Below the pieces are notes generated by a model. The model ran no database searches. It was not told the origin of the DNA and worked only from the letters and a program-made list of their open reading frames with translations. Position numbers and translations under genes: made by a program. Below, piece after piece: positions 1 through 4,663 of a stretch of DNA of 10,666 nt; position 1 is the first letter of the stretch; every line of letters begins with the position of its first letter. This DNA comes from a virus (Duplodnaviria; Heunggongvirae; Uroviricota; Caudoviricetes): positions 1 through 10,666 of IMG/VR virus record IMGVR_UViG_638341082_000009; one strand, 5' to 3'.

Positions 1-1053
1 TTACGGGGTAATGCCAACCGCTGCCGCCACTTTGTCGCCACTTGGCAGCGTTGCCAGAGGATTGAAACGGAGCGCCGTTTCTAGATGATCCGGTGCCAGA
101 TGTGCGTAACGCATAGTCATTTTTATATCGTGGTGTCCGAGAATTTTTTGTAAGGCCAGAATGTTTCCACCCGACATCATGAAGTGCGCCGCAAACGTAT
201 GGCGCAGAACGTGTGTGAGTTGACCGCGAGGGAGCACGATAGACGTTTTTTCCATCACGGATAAAAATTGAAAATAGCAGTCTGTGAAGAAATTGAACCC
301 ATCAAGCGCCATGATCTCTTCATAAAGCTCTTTACTGATAGGGATGCTTCTGTTTTTCTTCCCCTTCGTTCTTACAAAGGTAATTCGGTATTTAGTCACC
401 TGTGATCGGGTAAGGTTTATTGCTTCTCGCCAGCGTGCGCCTGTGCTTAAGCATATCTTGACTACCAGTGCCAGAATTGGGTCCTGACGTTTGCAATCAG
501 CCAGCAGTTCAACAATCTGCTCATGGGTAAGCCATGCCATCTCTTTTTCTGCGATGGTGAATTTTCGCATGTTCTCCAGTGGGTTTGGATACGACCATTC
601 GCCCAGGCGGGATAGTTCGCTAAAAACACTACTTAGATAGCTTTGCTCCAGGTTAATGGTGACCGGGCTGGCTCCTTTCTTCCATTTCTCGCTGAAGTAG
701 ATCTCACCTGTCAGGCGTTTATCTCGATAGTGGGCAAACATTTTAGAGGTGAGATTGGTTGCAAGAGGATTGCCTAGAGCGTCAACCATCAGCAGCAATT
801 TGTCATAGACATGCTGCCCAGCAGTCAGAGATTTACCATGTAATTTGAACCATAGCTCAACCACGTCTTTCAGGGTTCGACGATCCACTGATTCGCCCAG
901 CCAGGGCTTTGATTCGGTTTCTTCCATCGTGTGACGCTCAAAAGCCAGAGCTTCGCCTTTGGTGGCGAATTGTTTACGCACACGACGCCCACTTCGTCCG
1001 GCGGGGTAACATTCGCAAAGCCATTTCCCTGTGGTGAGTTTTCGTACTGCCAT
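1..1053 (-). CDS. int: Phage integrase (tyrosine recombinase, P2/186-like)
   Basis: 350-aa ORF with stop at 1-3. C-terminal region (HTFAAHFMMSGGNILALQKILGHHDIKMTMRYAHL) is typical of the tyrosine recombinase catalytic domain. Minus-strand RBS GGAGGG about 9 nt upstream of the ATG at 1053. Lies downstream of the repressor in the same orientation, as in the P2/186 lysogenic operon. Confidence 0.9.
   Translation of the reverse strand: MAVRKLTTGKWLCECYPAGRSGRRVRKQFATKGEALAFERHTMEETESKPWLGESVDRRTLKDVVELWFKLHGKSLTAGQHVYDKLLLMVDALGNPLATNLTSKMFAHYRDKRLTGEIYFSEKWKKGASPVTINLEQSYLSSVFSELSRLGEWSYPNPLENMRKFTIAEKEMAWLTHEQIVELLADCKRQDPILALVVKICLSTGARWREAINLTRSQVTKYRITFVRTKGKKNRSIPISKELYEEIMALDGFNFFTDCYFQFLSVMEKTSIVLPRGQLTHVLRHTFAAHFMMSGGNILALQKILGHHDIKMTMRYAHLAPDHLETALRFNPLATLPSGDKVAAAVGITP
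19..40. repeat. Left copy of 22-bp imperfect direct repeat (candidate attL core), inside the 3' end of int
   Basis: CGCTGCCGCCACTTTGTCGCCA at 19..40 matches CGCTGCCGCCATTTTGTCGCCA at 7812..7833 at 21 of 22 positions. Similarity ends on both sides of the 22 bp. The two copies bracket all phage-like genes. Confidence 0.5.
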
Positions 1054-1143
1054 AAAAAATGCCCTCCAGTGGAGAGCATTTATACTGTTTTTTTATACAG
1101 TGTCAATGTATGATGATTGGATAACTATACATATGTTATGTGT

Positions 1144-1824
1144 TTAATGCATTTTAGTTACATCTATGTTTTTATTGATTGTCTCTTTGTTACTGGAAAG
1201 TCTTTGTTCTTTTCTTTTAATGTATAACTCCCAACGAATATTATTCATTATGATAGCGTAGATATTAAAAATAAATGTCTTTACTACTAACACTAAGTAA
1301 ATAAGGCTAGTCCCTATAACACAGTATCCAAATTTAATAATTAATTCTTTTATCGATTTTGAATATGGAAATAAATCAATTATATTGCCAATTATTCCAT
1401 CTTTTTGACAAAAGAGAATTATTATTAGATAAATGAAAGTAAACGTAATAAATGAAATGAAAACTTTCATAAATGCCATAAAGTTATATTTTAACGTGGG
1501 CATCTGTGTTTTTTTATGTTGTATTGACATCATCTGAAGAAACATCTCGGGTTTGGATAGTGTTGCAAATATTGTGAAACCAGCAATGAGAAAACCTAAG
1601 GTTGTCACTGCAAAGTTAAAACCAATCAAAGCCCAGTTTCTAATGTCAGATACTAAATGAGACATATCCTTCTCAATAAAAAAAGAGTTTGTTAATAAAA
1701 AAATAGATGCTGTGAGCAAAATGCAAATATGGAATGTACTAATAGTAATCCGTTTGCAGAGCAAGTAAACATCCCAAAGGTTTTTCTCTTTGGTTATTTC
1801 TTTAGCATCTATTTTATTTATCAT
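1144..1824 (-). CDS. Hypothetical membrane protein, about 4 predicted TM helices; candidate effector of a two-gene prophage cargo module
   Basis: 226-aa ORF with four long hydrophobic runs (e.g. ISTFHICILLTASIFLLTNSFFI, WALIGFNFAVTTLGFLIAGFTIFATL, FMAFMKVFISFITFTFIYLIIILFC, LIYLVLVVKTFIFNIYAIIM). Its ATG overlaps the upstream gene's stop as ATGA at 1821-1824. Strongly AT-rich, roughly 30% G+C by manual count of sampled stretches. No family recognised. Confidence 0.6.
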   Translation of the reverse strand: MINKIDAKEITKEKNLWDVYLLCKRITISTFHICILLTASIFLLTNSFFIEKDMSHLVSDIRNWALIGFNFAVTTLGFLIAGFTIFATLSKPEMFLQMMSIQHKKTQMPTLKYNFMAFMKVFISFITFTFIYLIIILFCQKDGIIGNIIDLFPYSKSIKELIIKFGYCVIGTSLIYLVLVVKTFIFNIYAIIMNNIRWELYIKRKEQRLSSNKETINKNIDVTKMH

Positions 1825-2849
1825 CGACCAAACCTTTCATATATATTGCTAATAATTCTAATCGTCTTTTGTGAAAGAGAACGGGGTAGAGATATCTTAC
1901 CTTCTTCTACAAGATTTTCATACCGCTCATAACTTTCATTTGCAGCTACTACCGTATCCTTTGATAATTCATTCATCTCACTTAACAAAACAAAGTCATC
2001 ATTGCTACCTTTGATTATATCACCATTGTCATCATATCCTTTAATATTTATTCCTGAATTAGCCAATCTGGTTGCTGATGTGAGTTGTTCTAAAACAGCA
2101 CCATGATTCAAGCCTGAATCGGTGTTTGAAAAGCGAATAGATGTAGAAATACTTCCCATTTCGTCTCCGGCACTTTCAAGTGACTCCCAAAATTCGTCGT
2201 TATCAATTTCTTCTTGATTTGTAGGGAGAAGTTTTACTGAGACATTTTGGATTTTATTAAAATTATCAATAAATTGCTCTAGGCTTTGTTTGTCAGTTAA
2301 CGGCGTTATTCTTAGCTTCGGGCGTTTGATTTCGTTCCGTAAGCTTTTTTTAGTGACTCGAGGTAAGTCAGGGTTTTCTTTGCGTTCTTCTTGTGCGGTT
2401 TCGTATAAATGAGATATGTATTTTTCATATTCTATGTTTAAGAAGCACTGACTTGTTGACTGAAAGTTTTGAATTGTGGGAGCACCACTAACTTCCTTGC
2501 AAAGAATTAATCTGTGAGTGTTTAATATTAGAAGAAAGAAAGAGCTCGGGGCTGTTTCAAGCTCTTTATGATCTTCAACCAAATCAGCACCATCAAATAC
2601 TTGTTCTCTGGTTAATAATGTATTCTTAATAATCCGACCTTTAATTCCGAGTACTGGGGGTGTTGCTTCTTCGTCAAGTATGACGCATTCAGTATCAATG
2701 AAAAAGAACTCTGATTTGTCAGATATTCTGCGGATGTTTGCCATCTCCAAAAAAGAGGGGAAAACAATTTCATCATAATAGTCTAGCAAAACATCATCAC
2801 CAAAACGGAGAGTATAATTTCCAAATTCGAGTTTTTTTATAAAATCCAT
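1821..2849 (-). CDS. Hypothetical soluble protein (342 aa), first gene of the two-gene cargo module; function unknown
   Basis: 342-aa ORF starting 15 nt after the repressor stop codon, with minus-strand GAGG about 9 nt upstream of the ATG. Strongly AT-rich. Contains acidic stretches; I see no Walker A, HxD or other recognisable catalytic motif. Stop overlaps the start of the downstream membrane-protein gene. Confidence 0.6.
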   Translation of the reverse strand: MDFIKKLEFGNYTLRFGDDVLLDYYDEIVFPSFLEMANIRRISDKSEFFFIDTECVILDEEATPPVLGIKGRIIKNTLLTREQVFDGADLVEDHKELETAPSSFFLLILNTHRLILCKEVSGAPTIQNFQSTSQCFLNIEYEKYISHLYETAQEERKENPDLPRVTKKSLRNEIKRPKLRITPLTDKQSLEQFIDNFNKIQNVSVKLLPTNQEEIDNDEFWESLESAGDEMGSISTSIRFSNTDSGLNHGAVLEQLTSATRLANSGINIKGYDDNGDIIKGSNDDFVLLSEMNELSKDTVVAANESYERYENLVEEGKISLPRSLSQKTIRIISNIYERFGR

Positions 2850-2864
2850 TACTATGCCTCAAGA

Positions 2865-3743
2865 TTAAATAGTACGGTACTGTGAGAAAATTTTGGCAAC
2901 TAATTTTATATCTTCTTTTTCACAATCAAATGTTAAATCATCGTCTGTTACTCGAAGATTGCCTCCAGGTAATAGAAAAATTTGTTTTAACTTGAAATTA
3001 TTTTGGTATTGAACAATCCATCTTCCGTCTTCAACATTAGCTTTATTCATGTGTGCAATATTTATGCAATGTTCGTCTTCAATTGCGAGTAAATCATTAA
3101 AATGAGGAAGCAGGGACTTATCTATCAATAAATGACCAGCATCGAAAATTTGATTGTCAATAAGTTTTACTTTAGGAATTTCTAAAGCTTCACTTTCTTC
3201 GCTTCCAAGTTTTTGCCCGCGCCCAGTTGCTAACCATAAAAGAGAAGTTCTTGTTTCCAACGAGCATCTTATGATCCAGTCAGCTGGGAATGTGTCTCGC
3301 AAGTATCTATTCGCCATTGTGCTTTTAGACACATTCAAATGGTCGGCAAGTTCTTGTCTTGTTTTAAAGCCATACGCTTCCATTAGCCTGTTTATCGCAT
3401 TACGTCCACCTGAATCCAGATTTGGATGGTTCACAATTGGGTTCTCGTTGGTGGTGGCTTTGGGAACATATTGAACCAATGATGCTGGTTCCTCTAATTT
3501 AGCGGGAACTTCGGTATTCTTAGGAAATGGCACGCCTTTTCCGAATGAGAGCCACTCTATAGATGCTCCTGTTTCAATTGCACACTGAATTACCCAGTCA
3601 GCAGGAAATGCGTCACGCATCCAGCGCGTTCCCATAGTACTTGCAGATACATTGAACTGTTCACATAGGGCTTGCCGCGTCTTGAATCCATACGCTTCAA
3701 GCATGCGCGTTATGACTGCCTGTCCTCCGTTTTTGAAATTCAT
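2865..3743 (-). CDS. cI: Phage 186 CI-like immunity repressor with tandemly duplicated N-terminal HTH domain
   Basis: 292 aa. Two paralogous roughly 60-aa segments (ITRMLEAYGFKTRQALCEQFNVSASTMGTRWMRDAFPADWVIQCAIETGASIEWLSFGKG and INRLMEAYGFKTRQELADHLNVSKSTMANRYLRDTFPADWIIRCSLETRTSLLWLATGRG) match the pattern of the 186 CI DNA-binding domain as I recall it. The C-terminal part (GRWIVQYQNNFKLKQIFLLPGGNLRVTDDDLTFDCEKEDIKLVAKIF) resembles the 186 CI C-terminal domain. Divergent from an Apl/Cox-like gene. Confidence 0.8.
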   Translation of the reverse strand: MNFKNGGQAVITRMLEAYGFKTRQALCEQFNVSASTMGTRWMRDAFPADWVIQCAIETGASIEWLSFGKGVPFPKNTEVPAKLEEPASLVQYVPKATTNENPIVNHPNLDSGGRNAINRLMEAYGFKTRQELADHLNVSKSTMANRYLRDTFPADWIIRCSLETRTSLLWLATGRGQKLGSEESEALEIPKVKLIDNQIFDAGHLLIDKSLLPHFNDLLAIEDEHCINIAHMNKANVEDGRWIVQYQNNFKLKQIFLLPGGNLRVTDDDLTFDCEKEDIKLVAKIFSQYRTI

Positions 3744-3769
3744 CTAGTACGCCTTTGAGTAATATTGAG

Positions 3770-3798
3770 TTGACACTTCTCAAATGAAGAATTAATGT
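3770..3798 (+). promoter_or_regulatory. Candidate sigma70 early lytic promoter (pR/Pe-like) in the repressor-apl switch region
   Basis: TTGACA at 3770-3775, 17-bp spacer, TAATGT at 3793-3798, reading rightward toward the Apl-like gene. Sits in the 125-bp divergent intergenic region between the cI start (3743) and the apl start (3869). Confidence 0.45.
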
Positions 3799-3868
3799 GT
3801 GCGAAAGTGAACTTGACGGTGTTAATCACCAGTTACCACACATCATGTTAATCGAGGAATCTTGCATC

Positions 3869-4090
3869 ATGACTCCACATATTTCAATCACCTTAGCTGT
3901 TCCATCTGTTTCTATTGAGAAATACAGCGAACTGACTGGCTTATCTATCGACACCATCAATGACATGCTGGCTGATGGACGTCTTATTCGCCATCGTCTC
4001 CGTAAGGATAAAAAGCGAGAAAAGGTGATGATCAATATCGCAGCAATGACTGTTGATGCACTCGCTGAATGCAATTTGAGCATTAACTAG
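3869..4090 (+). CDS. apl: Apl/Cox-like excisionase and transcriptional regulator (small HTH protein)
   Basis: Start chosen at the ATG at 3869 because GAGGAA lies 9 nt upstream and the longer ORF start at 3797 would fall inside the predicted promoter. Contains an HTH-like segment (YSELTGLSIDTINDMLADGRLIR). First rightward gene, divergent from the repressor, as in the 186/P2 switch. Confidence 0.5.
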   Translation: MTPHISITLAVPSVSIEKYSELTGLSIDTINDMLADGRLIRHRLRKDKKREKVMINIAAMTVDALAECNLSIN

Positions 4091-4104
4091 TTCCATTTTG
4101 GGTT

Positions 4105-4485
4105 ATGTCAGAGATGTCGAATATGTTTGATTACCAAGTTTCCAAACATCCACATTTTGATGAAGCCTGTCGTGCATTCGCATTGCGCCACAACCTGGTG
4201 CAACTGGCAGAACGTGCTGGCATGAATGTGCAGATTCTGCGGAACAAGCTGAACCCAGCTCAACCTCATTTATTAACCGCACCAGAAATCTGGCTGCTTA
4301 CCGATCTGACTGAAGATTCAACGCTGGTAGATGGTTTTCTGGCGCAGATTCATTGTCTGCCATGTGTACCGATTAATGAGGTGGCAAAAGAGAAACTGCC
4401 ACATTACGTCATGAGTGCAACCGCAGAGATCGGGCGTGTTGCTGCAGGTGCGGTATCTGATGAAAGTGCGTGCGCATCAGTATGA
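4105..4485 (+). CDS. cII: CII-like phage regulatory protein (186 CII/CP76-like), probably 3'-truncated or chimeric at a deletion junction
   Basis: 126-aa ORF after apl with an HTH-like segment ([19 protein letters not shown]). Its 3' end runs 26 nt into the X start at 4460, where the gene neighbourhood switches abruptly from early-region to late-region genes. Start codon uncertain (ATG at 4105, 4114 or 4123). Confidence 0.5.
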
Positions 4486-4663
4486 CACGGTGGACGCGCT
4501 TTGCTGGCGTCATTACGGGCGCACGCAGGGTGTCACGGAGCAGGTACTGAAGGCAAATCCGGGGCTTGCCGAATACGGCCCCTTTTTACCTCACGGGCTA
4601 CAGGTGGAGCTGCCGGACATTCCGACAACCACCACCGTGCAGACCGTCCAGCTATGGGACTGA
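4460..4663 (+). CDS. X: P2 gpX-like tail protein X (LysM-like)
   Basis: 67-aa product from the internal ATG at 4460 ([54 protein letters not shown]...), matching the length and sequence pattern of P2 gpX. Followed by holin and endolysin genes as in the P2 X-Y-K order. Confidence 0.8.
   Translation: MKVRAHQYDTVDALCWRHYGRTQGVTEQVLKANPGLAEYGPFLPHGLQVELPDIPTTTTVQTVQLWD

Follow-up and report, generated by a model that had tools for sequence, protein, structure and literature searches.

The DNA analysed here, a stretch of 10,666 nucleotides that we call the window, carries a prophage gene coding for an immunity repressor of 292 residues with two CI-type HTH DNA-binding domains in tandem. The first of these domains, D1, appears to come from another immunity lineage, and the second, D2, forms a complete 186-type CI together with the C-terminal domain. 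The features of the repressor gene and of the two genes that face it are the following.

2865..3743, minus strand: cI, two-HTH immunity repressor of the 186 type, 292 residues, WP_001009712.1 (open reading frame list; Pfam, PF07022 twice and PF16452)
3528..3731, minus strand: D1, first HTH, residues 5-72, apparently from the lineage of 206-residue-type CIs (HMM; AlphaFold2 helices; identity to P0054/P0069; dN/dS)
3417..3521, minus strand: inter-domain linker, residues 75-109, predicted to be disordered (pLDDT; dN/dS; homology breakpoints at 3445 and 3535)
3210..3413, minus strand: D2, second HTH, residues 111-178, counterpart of the one HTH in 186 CI (HMM; alignment with the N-terminal domain of 2FJR; pLDDT; dN/dS)
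2889..3182, minus strand: C-terminal oligomerisation domain, Phage_CI_C, residues 188-285 (Pfam; Foldseek against 2FKD)
3869..4090, plus strand: apl/cox-like gene, 73 residues, divergent from cI (open reading frame; all related loci have a 73-residue homologue in this place)
4105..4485, plus strand: cII (Phage_CP76), cut by the prophage deletion (Pfam E 2.3e-38, profile positions 1-115 of 146)

A gene identical to 2865..3743 is labelled 'phage repressor protein CI' in 13 complete Escherichia coli genomes. Pfam predicted two Phage_CI_repr domains (PF07022, whole-protein E 4.1e-59) and one Phage_CI_C domain (PF16452, residues 188-285, E 2.2e-16) in the protein, and an HMM built from the HTH domain placed the HTH borders at residues 5-72 and 111-178. 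When the N-terminal 100 residues were compared with the rest by BLASTP, 38 of 69 positions of the D1 and D2 regions were identical (55%) in a gap-free alignment (E 2e-31), with the same consensus string that an earlier, sequence-only reading of this DNA had reported. The corresponding DNA repeats, 3537..3716 and 3219..3398, are 60% identical over 180 nt without gaps, and BLASTN aligned them at 68.6% identity over 105 nt (E 1.4e-8). They are genuine yet strongly diverged. Thus, the tandem of CI-type HTHs proposed in that reading, in the form of paralogous segments of about 60 residues encoded by diverged repeats, was recovered by Pfam, by the HMM and by self-comparison of both protein and DNA. 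Its description of 186 CI as a single-HTH protein was also correct, since the 186 CI structure 2FJR (189 residues) aligns to residues 115-290 only of the 292-residue CI (E 1.3e-23). D2 and the C-terminal domain therefore make up a whole 186-type CI, and residues 1-110 are an extra HTH followed by a linker.

The 292-residue protein is a genuine member of the 186 CI family. PF07022 is present in two copies, each with five helices in the predicted structure, and the protein aligns with the N-terminal domain of 2FJR. The Phage_CI_C beta domain, which forms dimers and a 14-mer wheel assembly in this family, is present both as a Pfam domain and as a predicted fold. The gene order is that of the 186 type, with int (1..1053, minus strand), cI, divergent apl (3869..4090, plus strand) and cII (from 4105, plus strand), an order common to the window, the intact prophage of E. 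coli SF-173 and 186. Window CI and 186 CI (2FJR, 2FKD) thus share their Pfam families, PF07022 and PF16452, the fold of the C-terminal domain and the gene neighbourhood. In contrast with 186 CI, which has the canonical single HTH per monomer, window CI has two, with an N-terminal HTH and a 35-residue tether added, a sub-architecture also found in the CI of phage PSP3. Other repressor types did not fit. Pfam gave no Peptidase_S24 match in the 292-residue CI, unlike the self-cleaving LexA/lambda CI type, and LexA and lambda CI were only distant fold matches to its C-terminal domain in Foldseek (E 1e-6 to 1e-3, 9-15% identity). The P2 C type (~99 residues, single domain, direct repeats), which is distinct from the 186 CI type (PMC3448106), was rejected because the protein has 292 residues and the 186 CI Pfam families.

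We predicted the structure of the monomer with AlphaFold2, using an alignment of 44 two-HTH homologues as input. The model has two five-helix HTHs (pLDDT 81-90; 81-90 for D1, 81-89 for D2) and a beta-rich C-terminal domain (pLDDT ~90), joined by a linker (residues 75-109) whose pLDDT is 28-41; the pTM is 0.40. These last two values suggest an arrangement of beads on a string, in which the packing of D1 and D2 against each other is probably not fixed. In Foldseek searches against the PDB, the top match for the model was the 186 CI structure 2FJR (E 4e-17), and its C-terminal domain superposed on 2FKD with a TM-score of 0.91 and an rmsd of 1.5 Å. The monomer prediction proposed as a check in the sequence-only reading thus returned two folded HTHs and a disordered linker of ~35 residues.

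That reading had also taken the second HTH to be the product of a tandem duplication, and here it did not hold up. The single-HTH, 206-residue CI P0069 matches residues 1-77 of window CI with its N-terminus, at 81% identity. D1 shares 89% of its residues with the HTH of P0054, a 206-residue CI of E. coli, compared with 70% for the best foreign D2 and only 56% for the D2 of the same protein. In contrast, residues ~99-292, i.e. D2 and the C-terminal domain, match the single-HTH CIs P0007 and P0004 (195-197 residues) from about residue 8 of the latter onwards, at 75-81% identity. A neighbour-joining tree of HTH domains nested D1 in the large clade of single-domain 206-residue proteins, apart from the clade formed by the D1s of most two-HTH proteins. 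The DNA is mosaic in the same way. Window positions 367-3445, with int, two cargo genes, the C-terminal domain and D2, are colinear with prophage L006 at 85.8% identity. The CI of L006 is the single-HTH protein P0007, and the homology ends at codon 5 of its cI gene, corresponding to codon ~100 of window cI. Positions 3535-4268, with D1, the switch region, apl and cII, match the 206-type prophage L004 (69%), and the 89 nt in between (3446-3534) match neither L006 nor L004, which sets the breakpoints at 3445 and 3535. The greater closeness of D1 to a foreign HTH, the mosaic with its breakpoint in the linker and the nesting in the tree together argue against a local duplication.

On these alignments, D1 and the pR/pL switch DNA next to it appear to have arrived jointly from a heteroimmune, single-HTH lineage of the 206-residue type. 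Most simply, two parent cI genes would have been joined in frame, by fusion or recombination in the linker. The first parent, a 206-type cI, would have given the switch region, the HTH and the start of the linker, and the second a near-complete P0007-type cI. P0054 and P0069 (206 residues) apparently represent the parent type for D1 and the switch region, and P0004 and P0007 that for D2, the C-terminal domain, the downstream cargo genes and int; all four have one HTH each. A different event, the replacement of D1 inside an older two-HTH gene, could also account for the mosaic. That an HTH segment was copied in place in an ancestral cI and the copies later diverged is highly improbable for this gene: D1 and D2 are adjacent paralogues, and the N-terminal tail MSTxK... 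of the main clade of two-HTH proteins resembles the tail that precedes D2, but the 89% identity to a foreign single-domain HTH, the breakpoints and the position of D1 within the 206-residue clade all speak against it.

Elsewhere in the family, the picture may differ. Three distant members (P0227, P0264 and P0209) have a D1 that most resembles the D2 of the same protein (67-70% identity, with 45-71% to single-domain HTHs), as a local duplication would predict, and these may be true intragenic duplications judging from such identities. The two-HTH form thus probably arose by more than one route. The D1s of PSP3, of Klebsiella phage 4LV2017 and of the main clade belong to other clades than window D1, and those of the main clade are 84-100% identical to one another. 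Since window D1 lies outside the main clade and is closest to a single-domain HTH (89%), a separate origin is indicated, and the second HTH seems to have been gained several times across the family.

We compared window cI with the genes of two relatives that have the same D1-D2 combination, L003 and L012. The dN/dS values were 0.02-0.06 for D1, 0.02-0.14 for D2 and 0.35-0.66 for the linker, and the low values in the two domains indicate that both HTHs are kept by purifying selection. D1 and D2 differ by one to nine residues each between window CI and these relatives, and the C-terminal domains differ at 74-78 of ~100-105 residues. The latter therefore behaves as a separately exchangeable module. 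The cargo downstream also differs between the window and L003/L012. A related case, which came up among the PDB matches, is the engineered lambda-186 hybrid repressor (7JVT), in which a foreign HTH on a 186-type C-terminal domain replaces the native one, which indicates that this domain tolerates heterologous DNA-binding modules. Window CI differs from it in being a natural chimera that has kept both HTHs.

The window prophage is a deletion remnant. It is inserted between ybjL and rcdA, a site at which the prophage of E. coli SF-173 is intact, and its identity to the latter, 99.8%, ends at 4459. The cII gene codes for 126 residues in the window versus 169 residues (510 nt) in the intact SF-173 prophage, and its truncated frame overlaps a tail-protein-X gene (4415..4663, PF05489) across the junction at 4459/4460. 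The remnant is devoid of replication, capsid and most tail genes; besides a few late genes, it retains only int, cI, apl, the two cargo genes and the shortened cII. In E. coli HS, PhiECO1 occupies the same att site, with a 125-nt spacer (PMC3448106). It was ruled out as an already described equivalent of the window prophage, since its CI is a 189-residue, single-HTH protein of another immunity type.

The cargo genes lie between cI and int (1144-2849, minus strand), are co-oriented and overlapping, and code for proteins of 342 and 226 residues, the latter of which looks hydrophobic or membrane-bound by eye. Neither Pfam nor PADLOC gave a match for the two genes. L006 and L007 carry this pair as well. 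In L003, the same slot holds genes for an AAA ATPase and a DUF4276 protein, which we take to be a PARIS-like pair in a known P2-type defence hotspot. Because of this slot, the window pair is a candidate anti-phage system.

We determined how common two-HTH CIs are. Among the best 120 clusters at 90% identity, 45 contain proteins of 290-330 residues with two HTHs, from Escherichia, Klebsiella, Salmonella, Citrobacter, Enterobacter, Edwardsiella and Kosakonia. When 1.84 billion cluster representatives at 50% identity were searched exhaustively with HMMER, only 218 family members came up. Of these, 82 are 180 residues or longer, 21 with two HTHs and 61 with one. Pfam also found PF07022 twice, followed by PF16452, in the CIs of Salmonella phage PSP3 (NP_958086.1, 286 residues; L091, 859-1719) and Klebsiella phage 4LV2017 (ARB15674.1, 313 residues). 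Single-piece tblastn matches over 97-99% of a two-HTH query were obtained for Salmonella phages SEN1, SW9 and SI22 and for Escherichia phage Midge. In 5426 complete E. coli genomes, the exact window gene occurs in 13 and a close variant in 18, and the D1 region of the main two-HTH clade in a further 239; in total, ~270 genomes (~5%) have a two-HTH CI. The objection, raised with the sequence-only reading, that the two-domain form might be the common one in this phage group is thus half right: two-HTH CIs are a common minority that includes those of PSP3 and 4LV2017, but single-HTH proteins are still the majority.

PSP3, which belongs like 186 to the genus Eganvirus, 4LV2017 and the main clade all share the layout of two Phage_CI_repr domains and one Phage_CI_C domain at the same position of P2/186-like genomes. 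A 2011 survey of P2-like regulatory regions noted the PsP3 CI merely as having 'a longer C-terminal domain' (PMC3448106), and the two-HTH architecture of the CI of this classical phage seems to have been overlooked there. In the literature searched, with most subscription journals outside the reach of the search, we found no description of two-HTH 186-type CIs, nor any functional characterisation of those of PSP3, 4LV2017 or the main clade. The two-HTH sub-architecture is therefore widespread and abundant in databases, yet without a description in that literature.

The sites of the switch region and of the linker-coding DNA that may serve CI are the following.

3770..3798, plus strand: candidate pR for apl, with TTGACA (3770-3775), a 17-nt spacer and TAATGT (3793-3798) (by eye; homologous to the annotated 186 pR)
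3776..3791, no strand assigned: imperfect palindrome CTTCTCAAATGAAGAA in the pR spacer, candidate primary D1-type operator (resemblance and position)
3429..3444, no strand assigned: palindrome GAACCCAATTGTGAAC, at cI +307, candidate distal (FL-like) D2-type operator (resemblance and position)

A consensus promoter/terminator scanner made no call within 3600-4150, so the putative pR was assigned manually and by homology. The palindrome CTTCTCAAATGAAGAA in its spacer aligns with CTTTCCATTTGGAAAG, found at the same place in the 206-aa-type prophages L092 and L004, and is placed like the central 186 pR operator. It is identical in all three switch sequences of the lineage, namely those of the window, L003 and L012. 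Two other operator types did not fit the switch region. The 186 record annotates three CI sites at pR plus the distal sites FL and FR (ATTCAC-N5-GTGAAT) ~300 bp away, which 186 CI uses (PMC3675496). A-type operators of 186 (TTCAC-N5-GTGAA) gave four matches in the window versus 5.1 expected, with none in the switch region, and we infer that the A-type specificity of 186 is not used here. The pR palindrome GTACCCAATTGGGAAC of P0007-type phages is likewise absent from the window switch region.

Between 3650 and 4150, a generic search found only short two-copy repeats (TGTTAATC twice, 26 nt apart) and several inverted pairs of 8-12 nt. The stretch from the presumed pR to the start of apl contains both copies of TGTTAATC, at 3820 and 3846, as well as an inverted pair 42 bp apart, ATGTGTG (3796-3802) and CACACAT (3838-3844). 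In L003 and L012, conservation extends to the blocks with ATGTGTG, CACACAT and the first TGTTAATC, but not to the second copy (3846). All these repeats may be Apl sites or additional CI sites. The apl stop codon is directly followed by GTTCCATTTTGGGTT (4090-4104), where 186 has its FR site. It is conserved among phages of different CI types and missing from L006-type loci, and it was therefore set aside as an FR-like CI operator; it may belong to CI, to CII/pE or to Apl. In the main two-HTH clade (L002 and L018-L038), a conserved (T/A)TCACAWWWCGGAGA is found ~20-45 nt upstream of cI, where it replaces the palindrome CCCAAWTGGG of related single-HTH phages. Its half-sites, TTCAC and TTCTC, are unlike, and a second TTCAC/ATCNC lies ~21 bp away. 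Such sites hint at a different operator architecture in two-HTH phages.

A second candidate operator lies within cI itself. In single-HTH phages of the P0007 type, GTACCCAATTGGGAAC precedes cI by 37 nt, and the gene itself contains GTACCCAAATGAGATC at +22. The palindrome GAACCCAATTGTGAAC (3429-3444) is the positional homologue of this +22 site and lies just upstream of D2. It is identical to the L006 pR palindrome GTACCCAATTGGGAAC at 14 of 16 positions, the sole such match in the window, and is also the sole exact CNCAWWTGNG in these 10.7 kb. Relatives have GAACCCTATTGGGAAC and the perfect GTCCCCAATTGGGAAC at this position, and L012 has a perfect CCCCAATTGGG at its D2-type palindrome. A DNA motif, AAG..C..AWTG.GA, is conserved there over 19 two-HTH loci, and the surrounding linker is variable. 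However, this conservation could act at the protein level, as the DNA also codes for some of the tail at the N-terminal end of D2. We further asked whether a single-HTH isoform might start from an internal GTG, at codon 105, and ruled this out, since L003 and L012 have GGG there. With the +22 site now at cI +307, the insertion of D1 would have shifted an ancestral operator-like site to ~350 bp from pR, a distance comparable to that of the FL site in 186. By sequence and position, the candidate operators for CI are thus 3776-3791, in the pR spacer, and 3429-3444, ~350 bp away.

To our mind, the chances are about even that window CI combines the HTH of a heteroimmune repressor with a complete 186-type CI in an oligomer that bridges two classes of operators. 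The C-terminal domain would assemble dimers and higher oligomers, as in 186. D1 would bind the pR-overlapping operator inherited alongside it, and D2 its own ancestral-type palindrome, displaced to ~350 bp from pR in the linker-coding DNA. With both domains so engaged, the oligomer would bridge the two operator classes, which would yield a new immunity specificity put together from two older ones. The operators are assigned to D1 and D2 by resemblance and position, and several observations call for caution. The co-inheritance of D1 and the switch could reflect linkage and not function, as D1 adjoins the switch DNA. The recognition helices are alike family-wide (STM.TRW.RD versus STMANRYLRD), so D1 and D2 may share or overlap in specificity. 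Lastly, since the window prophage is a deletion remnant, the current function of CI in the strain is uncertain. The earlier suggestion that a second HTH might alter operator architecture or immunity is nevertheless plausible and fits the layout of the switch region.

It is possible, if rather doubtful, that only one HTH binds operators, the other being a spacer, a decoy for a Tum-like antirepressor or a binder of heteroimmune operators that confers dual immunity. The switch is indeed of the D1-donor type and its pR is devoid of the P0007-type palindrome, as expected if D2 had lost its targets at pR, and the 89% identity of D1 to the P0054 HTH makes cross-recognition of 206-type phages conceivable. 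However, purifying selection is strong on both domains, including their recognition helices, and a good D2-type palindrome has been kept and even improved in the lineage, as in L012. The pR half-sites, CTTCTC/TTCTTC in the window versus CTTTCC for P0054, argue against a simple shared immunity.

We consider it unlikely that the tethered D1 and D2 act as a single-chain dimer, filling both half-sites of one operator and altering its symmetry and spacing. A flexible tether of 35 residues would be long enough for this, and the pR-proximal site of the main clade, TTCAC-N6-GAGAA, has unlike half-sites. Bipartite binding of the POU type offers an analogy: the eukaryotic POU domain has two HTH-type domains on a flexible linker, is unrelated in sequence and resembles D1/D2 in function only. 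In contrast, the window pR palindrome is roughly symmetric and homologous to a symmetric site of 206-type single-HTH phages, and the AlphaFold2 model is devoid of contacts between D1 and D2.

Bridging of two operator classes, our preferred reading, can be taken further, although only tentatively. Window CI would then be a natural dual-specificity repressor, with D1 reading the pR operator and D2 the distal operator in the linker DNA, and a single recombination step would have created both a new immunity and a looped or wrapped complex. The two-HTH class might then represent a general route to new immunities in P2/186-like phages.

186 CI serves as a model of cooperative gene regulation with DNA wrapping, and the mechanistic work has all been done on this single-HTH protein. 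A second, tethered HTH is present in about a quarter of the sequence diversity of the family, PSP3 included, and is not discussed in the literature searched. As window CI took its extra HTH from another immunity group, the specificities of D1 and D2 can be predicted and tested separately. Should one domain alone matter, window CI is an unremarkable version of a known repressor. Should D1 and D2 each read a separate class of operators, it would provide a natural design for synthetic repressors of composite specificity and would show phages building new immunity types by module shuffling.
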